Shown: positions 2,681 through 53,418 of the stretch, in pieces | Layout: every line of letters starts with the position of its first letter | Numbering within the stretch: position 1 is the first letter of the stretch | NCBI GenBank assembly: GCA_942492765.1 | Contig: OW818634.1 | Span: 729,159 to 793,158 of the forward strand | From: an uncultured bacterium | GTDB taxonomy: Bacteria > Patescibacteriota > Patescibacteriia > Patescibacteriales > UBA12465 | Direction of reading: 5' to 3' | Length of the DNA: 64,000 nucleotides | Notes under the pieces: model-generated | What the model was told of the DNA's origin: nothing | What the model saw: the letters and a program-made list of their open reading frames with translations, nothing else | Databases searched by the model: none | Translations under genes and position numbers: made by a program

Positions 2681-3265
2681 TTATTTGTTTCTGCCGATAA
2701 CCTTATCGATGAGGCCATATTTCATGGCTTCGTCGGCGCTCATGAAATTATCGCGGTCGCTGTCAGTCTCGACCGTCGCTACTTTCTGGCCGGTATGCTG
2801 AGCGAGAATCTTATTCATCTTGTCCTTTATCTTCAATATATGTTCCGCTCTAATCTTGATGTCCGAGGCTTGGCCTTCGGCTCCGCCCATGACTTGATGG
2901 ATCATGACTTCGCTGTTAGGCAGGGCGAATCTCTTGCCCGGTTTGCCGGCGGCCAAAAGGACTGAAGCCATGGAGGCGGCTAAGCCGACGCAGATAGTCG
3001 AGACGTCTGATTTGATATATTGCATGGTATCATAGATAGCCAGCCCGGCGCTGACCGATCCGCCTGGGGAGTTGATATAGAACTTGATATCCGCGTCTTT
3101 ATTCTCAGCATCGAGGAATAAGAGCTGGGCAATGACGATATTGGCGACGTGGTCGTCTATAGCTTCGCCCAAGAAGATTATCCGATCTTTCAAGAGGCGG
3201 GAGTAGATATCATAAGCCCTTTCAGTCTGGCCGTCTTTCTCAATAACTGTGGGTATTAATGGCAT
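2681..3265 (-). CDS. clpP: ATP-dependent Clp protease proteolytic subunit
   Basis: 194 aa. Typical ClpP sequence ([34 protein letters not shown]) with the Ser-His-Asp context. Confidence 0.95.
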
Positions 3266-40435: not shown

Positions 40436-41050
40436 ATGGATAATTTAAAAAAAGGAATATATCGCCATTATAAGGGAAATGAATATCGGATGATAGAAGA
40501 AGGACAATTAGAGCACGATAAGGAAGACATGGTTATTTATGGCGCTATTGATGGCGGTAATTTGTGGATTCGGCCGAAGGCTGAATTTCTGGAGGAGGTC
40601 GAAGTGGATAGTATAAAAAAACCGCGCTTCGAATTCTTGCGCGAGGAAGAAGCTGAGACGAGCGAGAATAAATACCTCCGCGCCCTGGCTGATTACCAGA
40701 ACCTCTTGAAACAGACAGCGAAGGATAGAGAGGATTTTATCAAGTACGCGTTGTCTGATTTCTTGCAGGATATCCTGCCGGTCTATGACCATCTGAAACT
40801 GTCCATGTCCGGACTGAACGAAGAAGAGGCCAAGAACCCTTGGGCCGTCGGAGTGAAGCATGTCCTTAAGCAATTCAAAGACATTTTGGAAGCGAGAGGT
40901 GTCGAAGAGATCAAGACCATCGGCGAGAAGTTTGATCATGATCTGATGGAGGCGCTGGATGGCCAAGGCGAGAAAGTTAAGCAAGAAATCATGCCGGGCT
41001 ATAAGCTGAATGGAAAAGTCATCCGGCATGCGAAAGTCATAGTTGAATAA
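40436..41050 (+). CDS. grpE: GrpE nucleotide exchange factor with an N-terminal DUF1653-like domain
   Basis: Residues about 5-65 (GIYRHYKGNEYRMI...MVIYGAIDGGNLWIRPKAEFLEEVEVD..KPRFEF) look like DUF1653. The remainder (YLRALADYQNL...FDHDLMEAL...GYKLNGKVIRHAKVIV) is GrpE. Confidence 0.85.
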   Translation: MDNLKKGIYRHYKGNEYRMIEEGQLEHDKEDMVIYGAIDGGNLWIRPKAEFLEEVEVDSIKKPRFEFLREEEAETSENKYLRALADYQNLLKQTAKDREDFIKYALSDFLQDILPVYDHLKLSMSGLNEEEAKNPWAVGVKHVLKQFKDILEARGVEEIKTIGEKFDHDLMEALDGQGEKVKQEIMPGYKLNGKVIRHAKVIVE

Positions 41051-43627: not shown

Positions 43628-44707
43628 ATGTCAAAAGACTATTACAATATTTTAGGCGTCGGTAAGAGCGCCTCTCAGGACGAGATCAAGGCGGCTTTCC
43701 GCAAGAAAGCGCACGAGCATCATCCGGACAAAGGCGGCGACGCGGAAAAATTCAAAGAGCTTAATGAAGCCCACCAGGTTTTAGGCAACCCGGAGAAGCG
43801 GCAGCAGTATGACCGCTTCGGTTCAGCTTATCAGAACGGCCAGGCTGGCGGCGCGGGCGGCTTCGGCGGCGGTTTTAGCGGCTTTCAGGGCGGCCAAGGA
43901 TTTGATTTTGAAGATCTGGGAGATATGTTCGGCGGTTTTGGCGATATTTTTGGTTTTGGCGGAGGCGGAGGCTCTTCTCGAAAGCAAGCTCGCGGCCGTG
44001 ATCTAGAGATGAAAGTCAGTTTAGATTTTTTAGAAGCAGCTTTCGGTTTGGAAAAAGAAATCAGTTTTTCTAAGAATATAACTTGCGACCGCTGCCATGG
44101 CAATGGCGCTGAACCAGGCGCTAAAGTAGAAACTTGCCCGACCTGTAAAGGTTCGGGCCAGGTCAGCCGCCTCCAGCGCACCATCCTTGGCAATATCCAG
44201 ACACAGGCGACTTGCTCGCATTGCCACGGCGAAGGCAAGATTTATTCTCAGAAATGCACGAAATGCGAAGGTAGCGGCGTTTATCATGATCATGTCAGCT
44301 TCAAGGTCAAGATTCCGGCCGGCATTAACGATGGTGAATCGATCAGGCTGAGCGGCCAGGGCGAAGCCGGCCAGAAAGGCGCTCCGGCTGGCGATCTGTA
44401 TCTGCGCGTTTCAGTCAGGAATCATAAGAGATTTGTCCGCGCTGGCTATGATATCCGGACAGAAGAGAAGATTAGCGTAAAACAGGCGGTACTAGGCGAT
44501 AAGATTGATGTCGAGACTATCCATGGTCCGGTGAAGCTGAAGATTCCGGAAGGAACGCAATCAGGGACGGTCTTCAAGCTGAAAGAGAAGGGGGTCACGA
44601 AATTGAATAATCGGGGGATAGGCGATCAGTTTATCAAGGTCATTGTCGAAATCCCGAAGAGCTTGAGTAAGAAGCAGAAACAGATGCTGGAAGAATTGGA
44701 TATTTAG
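43628..44707 (+). CDS. dnaJ: Molecular chaperone DnaJ
   Basis: J domain with HPD (DYYNILGV...HHPDK), a G/F-rich region and four CxxCxG zinc-finger repeats. Confidence 0.97.
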
Positions 44708-44779
44708 GCCGTTTTTATTGACTATTCTGCTCAGGATGTTAAACTATAAGTGAGTTTATTATTAATTTACCCAAAATTT

Positions 44780-44932
44780 ATGTGCAATTTCTTCAAGAAG
44801 CTTTTTGGCGGTTGTTGCTGTTCTAAGCACGATGACTGCTGTTCCAAACAAGATGAGTGCTGTTCTAAGCACGATGACTGCTGCCATCATGATGAGAAGC
44901 CCGAAGCCGCTAAAGAAGAGATAAAGAAGTAA
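44780..44932 (+). CDS. Small Cys/His/Asp-rich peptide (50 aa) built of CCSK(H/Q)D(D/E) heptads
   Basis: MCNFFKKLFGGCCCSKHDDCCSKQDECCSKHDDCCHHDEKPEAAKEEIKK. It is preceded by TTGACT-16-TAAACT (44718-44745). The upstream GTG start in the ORF track is less likely. Confidence 0.5.
   Translation: MCNFFKKLFGGCCCSKHDDCCSKQDECCSKHDDCCHHDEKPEAAKEEIKK
44816..44878 (+). repeat. Three tandem 21-bp repeats inside the Cys-rich ORF
   Basis: Units 1 and 3 are identical (TGCTGTTCTAAGCACGATGAC). Unit 2 is TGCTGTTCCAAACAAGATGAG. Confidence 0.9.
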
Positions 44933-44940
44933 GAAAAGCC

Positions 44941-45792
44941 ATGTTCATAGATACCCATGCTCATGTGAACTTTGCCGCTTTCAAAGACGACGCTGACGAA
45001 GTCATCCGTCGTTCTTTGGGTAATAACACTTGGATGGTTCTGGTCGGCTCTGAAATCAAGACTTCGACGCGCGCCCTTAATTACGCGAATAAGTATGAAA
45101 AGGGCGTTTACGCCGCTATCGGTTTGCATCCAGTCCATCTTGAAGACGGCTCAATCGACACCGGCGAAGACGGCGCTAATTCCAGTTTTGTCTCGCGCGC
45201 CGAAGAATTCGATTATGGCAGCTATGAGAAGCTGGCAAAATTTGAGAAGGTCGTGGCCATCGGCGAGATCGGGTTGGATTACTATCATCTTGATCCAGCC
45301 AAAGATTTGCCGGCGATCAAGAAGAAGCAGCATGAGATATTTGCTCAGCAATTGCTCTTAGCTCGCAGTCTAGATCTGCCAGCCATCATCCATTGCCGCC
45401 AAGCCCATGACGATTTGCTCACGATTCTCACCGAATTCAAGAAAGAATACGGCCACCTAATTCCGGCTGATCGTCCCTGGGGAGTCATTCATTGCTTTTC
45501 CGGCGATGAGGATCTAGCTTGGAAATATTTCCGGCTCGGCCTTCTTATCTCCTTTACGGGGCTCATCACTTTCAGCAAGCAATGGGATGACCTGATCCGG
45601 AAGATTCCTTTGGATAAGATGATGATCGAGACCGATACTCCTTATATGACCCCGGAACCTTACCGCGGCCAGCGCAATGAACCGGTCCTCGTCCAATATG
45701 TCGCTAATCGGATCGCCGATATCAGGGGGATAAAGCTAGAAAAGGTAGCGGAGGTGACCACGGCGACCGCTCGCAATTTCTTCAGAATTTAG
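44941..45792 (+). CDS. tatD: TatD-family metal-dependent hydrolase/DNase
   Basis: MFIDTHAHVNF, GEIGLDY, IHCR and ETDTPYM motifs. Confidence 0.9.
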   Translation: MFIDTHAHVNFAAFKDDADEVIRRSLGNNTWMVLVGSEIKTSTRALNYANKYEKGVYAAIGLHPVHLEDGSIDTGEDGANSSFVSRAEEFDYGSYEKLAKFEKVVAIGEIGLDYYHLDPAKDLPAIKKKQHEIFAQQLLLARSLDLPAIIHCRQAHDDLLTILTEFKKEYGHLIPADRPWGVIHCFSGDEDLAWKYFRLGLLISFTGLITFSKQWDDLIRKIPLDKMMIETDTPYMTPEPYRGQRNEPVLVQYVANRIADIRGIKLEKVAEVTTATARNFFRI

Positions 45793-52599: not shown

Positions 52600-53418
52600 A
52601 TGCATCATATGTCTAACTCAATCGAAAACATGCACATGGAAAAAGGACACGAGAATAATCTTGTCGATCAGGGCTGGGAAAAGGCTCGCCAGAATGAGCT
52701 GATCAAGCGCCTAGATTCAGGAGAGAATATCCAGGGAATCATGGAATCCTTTCCGGAATTCAAGGAGGCTTTCAAGGCGCTAGACACTATCGACTGTTCC
52801 GACGGGCGCGTGCTCAAGGGCCGGAAGATGGGCATCGCTGGTAGCGGCCTCTTATTGCCGGAAGCGGAAAGAGCGACGTTCGTCTCTCACTTCAAAGGCA
52901 AAATCGAGACTATTACGACTCATTCTGATTGCGGCGCGGCCGCCCTCAAATTCAATTCCTTAAAACAAGAAGAGATTCCCGAGGGTGTGAAGACTGCTGA
53001 CGAATACGGGACTTATTGTGGTCGGAAATTAGCCGAAGATCTGGGAGCAAAACACGAATATCTGGATCGCGACGAGATGGCTAACGAATACCACAATGAA
53101 ACTGCTATCGTTATTGATCAGACCGGAGAATTCGACTCCACTAATCTAGAGGGTTTCCCCGCTCATTTCGTCTGTACTGGTGCCGGCTTAGGCTTTAGTC
53201 CGGAATATATGAAATCAGAGGTGAAGACTCTGGCTGGAATCGCCTTAGGGCATCATGGCTTCGGCGATCGTTTCGACTCTGCTAATCCGTTGCGCGTCAT
53301 CGTCGCGGCCAAAGATCAGGCACAGCTTGATCGCTGGATCGAGATCGGCCAAGAGGCTATCAAAGACTTCGGCGCTCGCGTCAAAGTCGATGGCTTCATC
53401 GCCCCCGAGAAGGAATAA
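52600..53418 (+). CDS. Hypothetical protein with beta-carbonic-anhydrase-like zinc motifs
   Basis: CSDGR (CxDxR) is followed 42 residues later by HSDCG (HxxCG). These are the two motifs that supply the Cys/His/Cys zinc ligands and the Asp-Arg dyad in beta-class carbonic anhydrases. The rest is not recognisably similar by eye. Confidence 0.4.
   Translation: MHHMSNSIENMHMEKGHENNLVDQGWEKARQNELIKRLDSGENIQGIMESFPEFKEAFKALDTIDCSDGRVLKGRKMGIAGSGLLLPEAERATFVSHFKGKIETITTHSDCGAAALKFNSLKQEEIPEGVKTADEYGTYCGRKLAEDLGAKHEYLDRDEMANEYHNETAIVIDQTGEFDSTNLEGFPAHFVCTGAGLGFSPEYMKSEVKTLAGIALGHHGFGDRFDSANPLRVIVAAKDQAQLDRWIEIGQEAIKDFGARVKVDGFIAPEKE

Follow-up and report, generated by a model that had tools for sequence, protein, structure and literature searches.

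Bacterial metallothioneins (MTs) use Cys plus His residues to bind metals, and SmtA binds 4 Zn(II) (PMC10612145). For Zn(II) and Ni(II), Hpn peptides containing the CC motif are stronger binders than CH/HC motifs, and Ac-EEGCCHGHHE and Ac-CCSTSDSHHQ anchor Zn(II)/Ni(II) via this motif (PMC10221980). The membrane-targeting sequence (MTS) of E. coli MinD, KGFLKRLFGG, is transplantable (PMC5471200). Here we analyzed a small gene whose predicted product recalls these systems. It lies at 44780–44932 on the + strand of a 64,000-nucleotide (nt) stretch of DNA from an uncultured bacterium of the Patescibacteriota (GenBank assembly GCA_942492765.1, contig OW818634.1, positions 729,159 to 793,158); the whole stretch is referred to as the window. 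Patescibacteria, also called the Candidate Phyla Radiation (CPR), have tiny genomes with many unannotated small genes, and to our knowledge almost nothing is known about their metal handling. Judged by its sequence, the product is a small Cys/His-rich peptide with a new architecture, not homologous to known MTs or curated families, and metal binding is predicted for it. With a probability of about 45%, we read it as a membrane-proximal (peripheral), MT-like peptide that would carry a metal–thiolate cluster.

The gene starts with ATG at 44780, ends with TAA at 44930–44932 and encodes 50 amino acids (aa), MCNFFKKLFGGCCCSKHDDCCSKQDECCSKHDDCCHHDEKPEAAKEEIKK. Its 10 Cys are residues 2, 12–14, 20–21, 27–28, and 34–35, and its His are residues 17, 31, 36, and 37. 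An initial annotation, made from the DNA alone, had counted 10 Cys and 4 His in the first 37 residues and vicinal Cys pairs with a period of seven residues, and the translation agreed with both exactly. Cys made up 20% of the peptide versus 0.67% of the other 57 genes in the window, in which 2 CC dipeptides occurred in 18,947 residues. Among the 206 ATG-started open reading frames (ORFs) of at least 40 aa in the six frames of the window, the next-highest Cys fraction was 9%. The Cys-rich composition is far beyond chance. With its 50 aa, 20% Cys, and no aromatic residue at positions 12–50, the sequence has the size and composition of an MT in the broad, polyphyletic sense. The features of the locus, in window coordinates, are as follows.

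43628–44707, + strand: dnaJ, which closes the hrcA-grpE-hsp20-dnaK-dnaJ cluster (TIGR02349, E 7.5e-124)
44718–44745, + strand: sigma-70-type promoter-like site, TTGACT, 16-nt spacer, TAAACT, with a TG extended -10 (sequence and family conservation)
44746–44779, + strand: A/T-rich 5' leader without a Shine-Dalgarno (SD) sequence (sequence)
44780–44812, + strand: residues 1–11, MCNFFKKLFGG, N-terminal amphipathic helix and candidate MTS (family motif logo, AlphaFold 2 (AF2), and likeness to MinD)
44813–44890, + strand: residues 12–37, Cys/His cluster (9 Cys, 4 His) in CC-x5-CC heptads (translation and alleles)
44816–44899, + strand: 21-bp tandem repeat, with three units at 44816–36, 44837–57, and 44858–78 (Tandem Repeats Finder (TRF) and alignment)
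44879–99, + strand: degenerate fourth repeat unit, encoding CCHHDEK
44891–44929, + strand: residues 38–50, DEKPEAAKEEIKK, short charged tail, putative counterpart of the longer acidic Pro/Glu/Thr-rich tails in the family
44941–45792, + strand: tatD, a TatD/YchF-family metal-dependent hydrolase gene (TIGR00010, E 2.5e-68, above cutoff), starting 8 nt past the stop of the small gene

We hold it to be nearly certain that the ORF is a real gene that encodes a protein on the + strand and is under purifying selection. A homologue search covering 5.8 billion proteins returned one identical match, P0002 (88% identical), and P0003 (63% identical, 46 aa). P0002 and P0003 were both found in dnaJ-ORF-tatD-atp synteny, and a fourth allele was present in locus L003. 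In the DNA alignment of the alleles, indels inside the ORF were 3, 18, and 3 nt, all multiples of 3. Between the window and its nearest allele (L001), 17 of the 21 differences were at codon position 3. The ratio of nonsynonymous to synonymous differences per site (pN/pS) in the sense frame was 0.05–0.15 for the three alleles of the window. After Jukes-Cantor correction, dN/dS was 0.03–0.04 for the small gene versus 0.01–0.03 for tatD, with synonymous sites near saturation. The aligned Cys residues (9–10) were all conserved in the six pairs of the four alleles, with 3–7 TGC/TGT swaps per pair.

The antisense frame in register with the third codon positions of the sense frame had an equally low pN/pS (0.09 versus 0.09; 44780–44929 versus L001 5001–5150), so low dN/dS alone cannot fix the strand of a short ORF. 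In 43 of 50 family loci this mirrored frame was interrupted by stops, and an ATG-started ORF ran across the span in 1 of 50. The strand was assigned to + because of these antisense stops, the + strand promoter, and the conserved sense ATG and N-terminal motif. The other antisense frames had pN/pS >1. Two overlapping candidates were rejected: a 42-aa antisense ORF at 44762–44890, which lies in a different frame (pN/pS 4.5), and a +1-frame ORF at 44805–44924 (pN/pS 6.3). Homologues in related genomes and a conserved frame, both of which the initial annotation had proposed to look for, were thus found in the form of P0002, P0003, the L003 allele, and a wider family upstream of tatD, with low pN/pS, in-frame indels, and kept Cys codons. 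It had also named the finding that would speak against a gene, namely absence from close relatives with the repeat evolving as non-coding DNA. The first part was observed in several close relatives, but as a clean deletion, and no decaying non-coding repeat was seen.

To place the peptide among its relatives, 80 loci around tatD homologues were taken from GTDB species genomes, and the ORFs just upstream of tatD were listed. The informatively titled loci were named Candidatus Falkowbacteria, Patescibacteria, or Parcubacteria. About 50 of the 80 carried an ORF of 41–97 aa directly upstream of tatD, all starting with a common motif. A profile search of 1.84 billion cluster representatives gave 52 matches at E < 1e-3, nearly all of 40–77 aa and with the shared N-terminus. 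The loci and the profile search together yielded about 100 distinct sequences, an unannotated family of Candidatus Falkowbacteria small proteins in which the window peptide is the richest in Cys. Their N-terminal consensus was M-C-N-W-[LF]-K-K-L-F-G-G-K-K, and in the motif logo of 99 members W/F was invariant, G was present in 92, the two K in 84 and 89, and L and F in 84 and 77, respectively. No paralogue bearing this motif was found in the six-frame translation of the window. The Cys/His cluster began 1–6 residues past the motif, was confined to 25 residues, and contained 0–9 Cys. CCSK(H/Q)D(D/E) heptads occurred only in the four alleles of the window; other styles were CCHKGED/CCHQGAD heptads, CxC runs of the CKCHCEKCHC type, and CCC(C)H. 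In a motif census, CxC, CC, and CxxC were found across the family. The tails were acidic and rich in Pro/Glu/Thr/Ala (mean net charge -6), with a weak C-terminal pattern E-E-x-x-Q/K.

On sequence evidence, the family is defined by the N-terminal amphipathic motif and the acidic tail, not by the cysteines. The median Cys number was 0, 3, 5, and 9 at tatD identities of <72%, 72–80%, 80–90%, and ≥90% to the window (Spearman 0.78, n = 50). Cys number thus tracks relatedness to the window organism, indicating that the window peptide is the extreme of a progressive elaboration. In our reading, the family was originally Cys-free, and the Cys/His cluster was added later as a lineage-specific elaboration. 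The initial annotation had guessed at metal binding from composition; this guess is reasonable in itself, and the family with its Cys gradient appears more informative.

The same note had stated that no known bacterial family could be assigned, and this held. The window peptide had no match in Pfam or NCBIfam at E up to 10, and no significant match to Pfam, NCBIfam, or PHROGs was obtained for the peptide or for 46 family members (Pfam/NCBIfam E up to 1 for the members). Matches to FtsA_C (E 0.24), CCGSCS (E 0.072), and PSM-epsilon (E 0.085) were sub-threshold and were not used as evidence. Membership of the SmtA/BmtA MT family (Pfam PF02069, Metallothio_Pro) was rejected, as neither the peptide nor the 46 members matched its profile. 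The sole match in a PDB sequence search, the spider toxin U21-hexatoxin (E 0.018), was dismissed as a Cys-composition artefact. Family members carried no name in any source examined, and a literature search for CPR/Patescibacteria MTs or cysteine-rich small proteins found none.

Some sequences stood at the edges of the family. In the 228-aa P0064, a SUFU domain is preceded by the family N-terminal motif plus an acidic linker, the arrangement one would expect if the motif were a portable targeting module. In the 315-aa P0034, segments like GFGSFFKKLFGGGKRDE(E/D)SAE occur internally three times. These two proteins suggest that the motif is also reused as a module beyond the small-protein family. 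P0061, a weak profile match next to corA and not tatD, is a doubtful member, and nothing was drawn from it. Loci L003, L006, L010, L011, and many others come from third-party annotation (TPA) records of metagenome-assembled genomes (MAGs) titled "uncultured Gammaproteobacteria bacterium", yet they have a Patescibacteria-type locus with tatD 75–96% identical to that of the window. These titles look taxonomically wrong.

The heptads are encoded by a tandem repeat. TRF reported a period of 21 bp, 3.2 copies, and a score of 108 at 44816–44883. Units 1 (44816–44836) and 3 (44858–44878) were identical in DNA (TGCTGTTCTAAGCACGATGAC), and unit 2 differed from them at 4 positions, so TRF and the unit comparison agreed with the three tandem units, first and third identical, that had been described. 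The CCSK unit was present in 3 copies in the window and L001 and in 2 copies in L002, L003, and L086, and the repeat-number variation proposed as a check was therefore found in relatives (3, 3, 2, and 2 units). Copy number differs, yet the window clade keeps a total of 8–9 cluster Cys, since the shorter alleles have a CCC or CCCC at their end. In a second clade, the CCHKGED heptads of L019 were likewise encoded by a 21-bp tandem repeat, indicating that the heptad unit CC[SH]K[HG][DE]D arose before the window's lineage. The claim of a recent repeat expansion therefore stands in part: the only sign of a recent event, a duplication or conversion, is that units 1 and 3 are identical, whereas the heptad unit itself predates the lineage. 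A scan of metagenome DNA for further CCSK-type alleles gave a single contig with the 46-aa allele already found (L086), so the subtype is rare and four alleles are known. Short repeats were also seen elsewhere, as a HENHENHENHEDH stretch, rich in His, that follows the Cys cluster in L012 (2745–2951) and as PE(V/A)xPE(A/S)TPE repeats in the tails of L014 (2722–2925) and L016 (2719–2931), suggesting that repeat-driven evolution is general in the family.

The metal-binding reading draws mainly on the His residues. Of the non-Cys residues, 15% were His in the clusters versus 0.8% in the tails and 0.5% in Cys-free members (20-fold enrichment within clusters, odds ratio 22), and His occurred in each distinct cluster style. 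L012 adds a His-rich repeat, (HEN)3. This strong co-clustering of Cys and His fits metal binding of the window peptide. The high Cys content, the stable total of 8–9 cluster Cys, and the metal binding of Hpn CC peptides and of Cys/His-based bacterial MTs also speak for it. Within residues 12–37, nine thiolates and four imidazoles would bind several soft metal ions as a metal–thiolate cluster, with Zn2+, Cu+, Ni2+, Cd2+, or Fe2+ as candidates. The window organism encodes an anaerobic-type ribonucleotide reductase (NrdD/NrdG), which points to an anaerobe with a reducing cytoplasm, where the thiols would remain reduced. Residues 1–11 would form an amphipathic helix of the MinD/FtsA/FtsY type and so hold the protein at the cytoplasmic side of the membrane, and the short charged tail may be the equivalent of the family's acidic disordered tail. 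The peptide would then serve as a membrane-proximal, MT-like metal buffer or sink, and its Cys/His cluster would have grown and shrunk by in-frame 21-bp slippage.

For the helix, AF2 was run metal-free with a 28-sequence alignment and predicted a helix at residues 2–9. In a helical wheel, M1/F4/F5/L8/F9 were on one face and K6/K7 on the opposite one, with a hydrophobic moment of about 0.5. The family sequence N-W-[LF]-K-K-L-F-G-G matches the MinD MTS at F/L-K-K/R-L-F-G-G, and both are terminal, amphipathic, and about 10 residues long. A difference is that the MTS is C-terminal in MinD and N-terminal in the family. FtsA, FtsY, and SepF also carry amphipathic membrane-targeting sequences, and those of FtsY and SepF are, like the family helix, followed by an acidic disordered stretch. 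Unlike in MinD, FtsA, FtsY, and SepF, the family helix is not attached to an ATPase, GTPase, or FtsZ-binding domain. A lipoprotein signal (lipobox [LVI][ASTVI][GAS]C) was considered and rejected. On inspection, the stretch before the first cluster Cys is only 11 residues long, with KK mid-way and no h-region; LFGG-C fits the lipobox poorly, and many members have no Cys at that position.

Several observations weigh against a membrane-proximal metal-binding peptide. Thirty-five of 103 members had no Cys after the helix, so metal(–thiolate) binding is not the ancestral core function of the family. The small gene was missing between dnaJ and tatD in L004, L005, L015, L029, L043, and L076, where the dnaJ-tatD gap was 5–30 nt (junction at about 2970–3001) and some tatD were 90–92% identical to that of the window; the gene is therefore dispensable or has moved. 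No metal-homeostasis gene was found among the conserved neighbours of the small gene. AF2 gave no fold beyond the helix at residues 2–9, with a predicted local distance difference test (pLDDT) score of 56, a low-confidence model for which fold-search matches would be meaningless. The hydrophobic moment was marginal in a shuffle test, as 5–11% of shuffles reached the observed value. Membrane binding is argued from a resemblance of 9–10 residues to MinD, not from homology. Finally, the p-value of the His enrichment overstates independence because the sequences are related.

The leading alternative gives the peptide a metal-free core function, as a membrane-tethered acidic disordered peptide that partners or regulates the TatD nuclease (e.g., as a nucleic-acid mimic or tether), the Cys/His cluster adding only a redox- or metal-sensitive switch in the window clade. 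We consider it unlikely but far from negligible. As the initial annotation had placed it, the ORF is flanked by dnaJ and tatD in the window, with the F-ATPase operon downstream of tatD. Across the family, the gene immediately downstream of the small ORF was tatD in every case, and the one on its other side varied: dnaJ, metG with a yrdC-like gene, atpD-atpC, or others. The partner that stays constant is tatD and not dnaJ. The Cys-free members retain the helix, the acidic tail with its mean net charge of -6, and the weak E-E-x-x-Q/K pattern, which also speaks for a partner of TatD. The distance from stop to tatD start was only 7–9 nt in the window clade, and no + strand terminator was detected between the two genes in the window; judged by this arrangement, the small gene is probably co-transcribed with tatD in this genome. 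The gap was 50–270 nt in other clades, however, and in L044 a terminator-like hairpin (2946–2980; 15-bp stem plus T-run) lies between the Cys-free small ORF and tatD, indicating that co-transcription with tatD is not universal. The close relatives that have tatD without the small gene also count against such a partnership, and the tail of the window peptide itself is short and not net-acidic. The ancestral role may have been that of a membrane-tethered acidic peptide connected to TatD.

Elsewhere in the window, GrpE (40436–41050) has an N-terminal DUF1653 domain (E 1.9e-18), and the same fusion was present in L001 and L085. Directly after atpC, a 272-aa ORF at 52600–53418, starting with MHHMSNSIENMHMEKGHENN, had no Pfam match at E up to 1e-5.

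A bolder form of the metal reading would make the peptide a member of a new class of bacterial membrane-tethered MTs, in which a MinD-like helix holds a metal–thiolate "cysteine string" against the inner membrane face and its metal capacity is tuned in the course of evolution by in-frame 21-bp slippage, built in steps of 0, ~3, 5, and 9 Cys on a Cys-free, TatD-coupled protein. From the sequences at hand, we regard this class as quite unlikely. In a variant drawn by analogy, the juxta-membrane Cys string itself could be the anchor, either metal-bridged into oligomers or S-acylated. Eukaryotic cysteine-string and GAP-43-type proteins are a precedent for an S-acylated Cys anchor; we know of no bacterial precedent for a Cys-string membrane anchor.

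The Cys cluster might instead be a redox buffer, a disulfide relay, or an Fe–S ligand and not an MT-like store, which we judge improbable. The high thiol density in a proteome otherwise very low in Cys is in line with this, as is the anaerobic host inferred from NrdD/NrdG. However, His and Asp/Glu are co-enriched with Cys, as is typical of metal sites and not of disulfide relays, and vicinal CC pairs form strained disulfides. The hypervariable number and spacing of the Cys (CC, CxC, CCC, CCx5CC) is also unlike a defined Fe–S site.

Much less credible is a regulatory leader peptide or upstream ORF whose translation, e.g., by stalling at the Cys codons, would control tatD, the peptide itself being functionless. 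The position 8 nt from tatD, the run of Cys codons, and a promoter of its own could be expected of such an element. The initial annotation had proposed the promoter TTGACT-16-TAAACT, which was located at 44718–44745. A TTGACT/TTGACA-16-TAxAAT site 30–48 nt 5' of the ATG, scoring at least 9 of 12, was kept in 43 of 50 family loci, and the TG extended -10 was also present in the promoters of relatives. The N-terminal amino-acid sequence is kept in about 100 members through synonymous change, which is at odds with a functionless peptide. Many members are Cys-free, and tatD is not a cysteine-pathway gene. No terminator or antiterminator was found, the RNA of the small gene folded no better than shuffled sequence (z = -0.32), and the locus had no Rfam match at E up to 1. 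In most clades the gap to tatD is again the wider one of 50–270 nt.

Between the -10 hexamer and the ATG, the leader contains the motif TTTATTATTAATTT (44755–44768), which recurs at the equivalent position in L001, L003, L011, L014, L016, L020, L022, and L023. From its position, it could be a translation enhancer or operator. An SD-like match was present upstream of only 6 of 58 window genes, and SD sequences were also absent before dnaK (41629), ftsZ (12002), and the atp genes (atpA 48266). The genome is therefore SD-poor, and the missing SD at the small gene is uninformative. Start codons in the window were preceded by A/T-rich stretches, often TAAAxxT.

We give scarcely any weight to a ranthipeptide-like precursor of a ribosomally made peptide with post-translational modifications (RiPP), with the N-terminus as leader and C-x3-D motifs cross-linked by a radical S-adenosylmethionine (SAM) enzyme. 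CX3D is the cross-link motif of PapB/PapA, and PapA has six, cross-linked by the radical SAM enzyme PapB (PMC9413430). Like PapA, the window peptide repeats C-x3-D/E (CSKHD, CSKQD, CSKHD) in a short sequence with a conserved N-terminal part, here followed by a hypervariable Cys-rich region. It differs in that the gene lies in a housekeeping context without a nearby maturase, and the motif is not conserved in the family: CX3D is missing from most members (CKCHC and CCCH types), and one-third are Cys-free. Its neighbours are dnaJ, tatD, and atp genes, and no radical SAM-SPASM maturase, RiPP recognition element, protease, or exporter adjoins it in about 50 loci. The only radical SAM genes of the window encode an NrdG-type activase (27 kb away) and a UPF0004/MiaB/RimO-type protein (18 kb away). 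The supposed leader has only about 11 residues, and a long acidic tail follows the Cys region.

A spurious ORF over a non-coding 21-bp repeat, or a real gene on the opposite strand, is largely refuted: the ORF is short, has no SD or database annotation, and is overlapped in the window by open antisense frames, one of which, with aligned third positions, mirrors its low pN/pS, but that frame is broken by stops in most family loci, the frame of the 42-aa antisense ORF has a pN/pS of 4.5, the indels are multiples of 3, and the sense ATG, N-terminal motif, and + strand promoter are conserved family-wide.

The locus defines a lineage-wide family of about 100 distinct sequences that lies outside curated families and has its own conserved promoter. 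It offers a case of evolutionary tinkering, in which a membrane-helix and acidic-tail peptide would have gained a Cys/His cluster that was expanded by in-frame 21-bp repeats. If metal and membrane binding are true, the peptide would be a structurally new, membrane-associated type among the few known bacterial MTs, and a small, easily synthesized CC-x5-CC model peptide for metal–thiolate chemistry. A functional link to TatD, if there is one, would give a hint of what TatD/YabD-type hydrolases do in the cell.

Compared with known MTs, the window peptide resembles SmtA/BmtA, MymT, and the Pseudomonas MTs in its size (about 50 aa), its very high Cys content, and the presence of His among the clustered Cys, and its 9 cluster Cys plus His are comparable in number to the complement of SmtA. 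The family differs from them in its lack of homology, its N-terminal helix and acidic tail, and its hypervariable Cys number, which can be zero. A GATA-type zinc-finger fold around a Zn4 Cys/His cluster, as in SmtA, was not predicted by the metal-free AF2 run, whose model (pLDDT 56) has the helix at residues 2–9 only, but apo-MTs are often disordered as well.

Csp1 and Csp3 are Cys-lined four-helix bundles of about 120–130 aa that store Cu(I). The likeness is that heptad-periodic Cys would line one face of a helix; the difference is that AF2 predicted no helix in the Cys region of the window peptide. On such a helix, His would be on the Cys face in CCSKHDD and not in the sister heptad CCHKGED. 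A helical Cys/His stripe, and a common helical face with the sister heptad, against which the His/Gly positions speak, are left as speculation.

The CC pairs of the window peptide, flanked by acidic residues and His (DDCCSKH, DDCCHHDE), recall segments of H. pylori Hpn/HspA (EEGCC, CCSTSDSHH). The C-terminal tail of SlyD is a comparable Cys/His-rich metal-binding segment. The likeness to Hpn is compositional only: Hpn is cytosolic and dominated by His runs, whereas the window peptide, from a host without a hydrogenase/urease context, has strict heptads derived from 21-bp repeats and a membrane-type helix.

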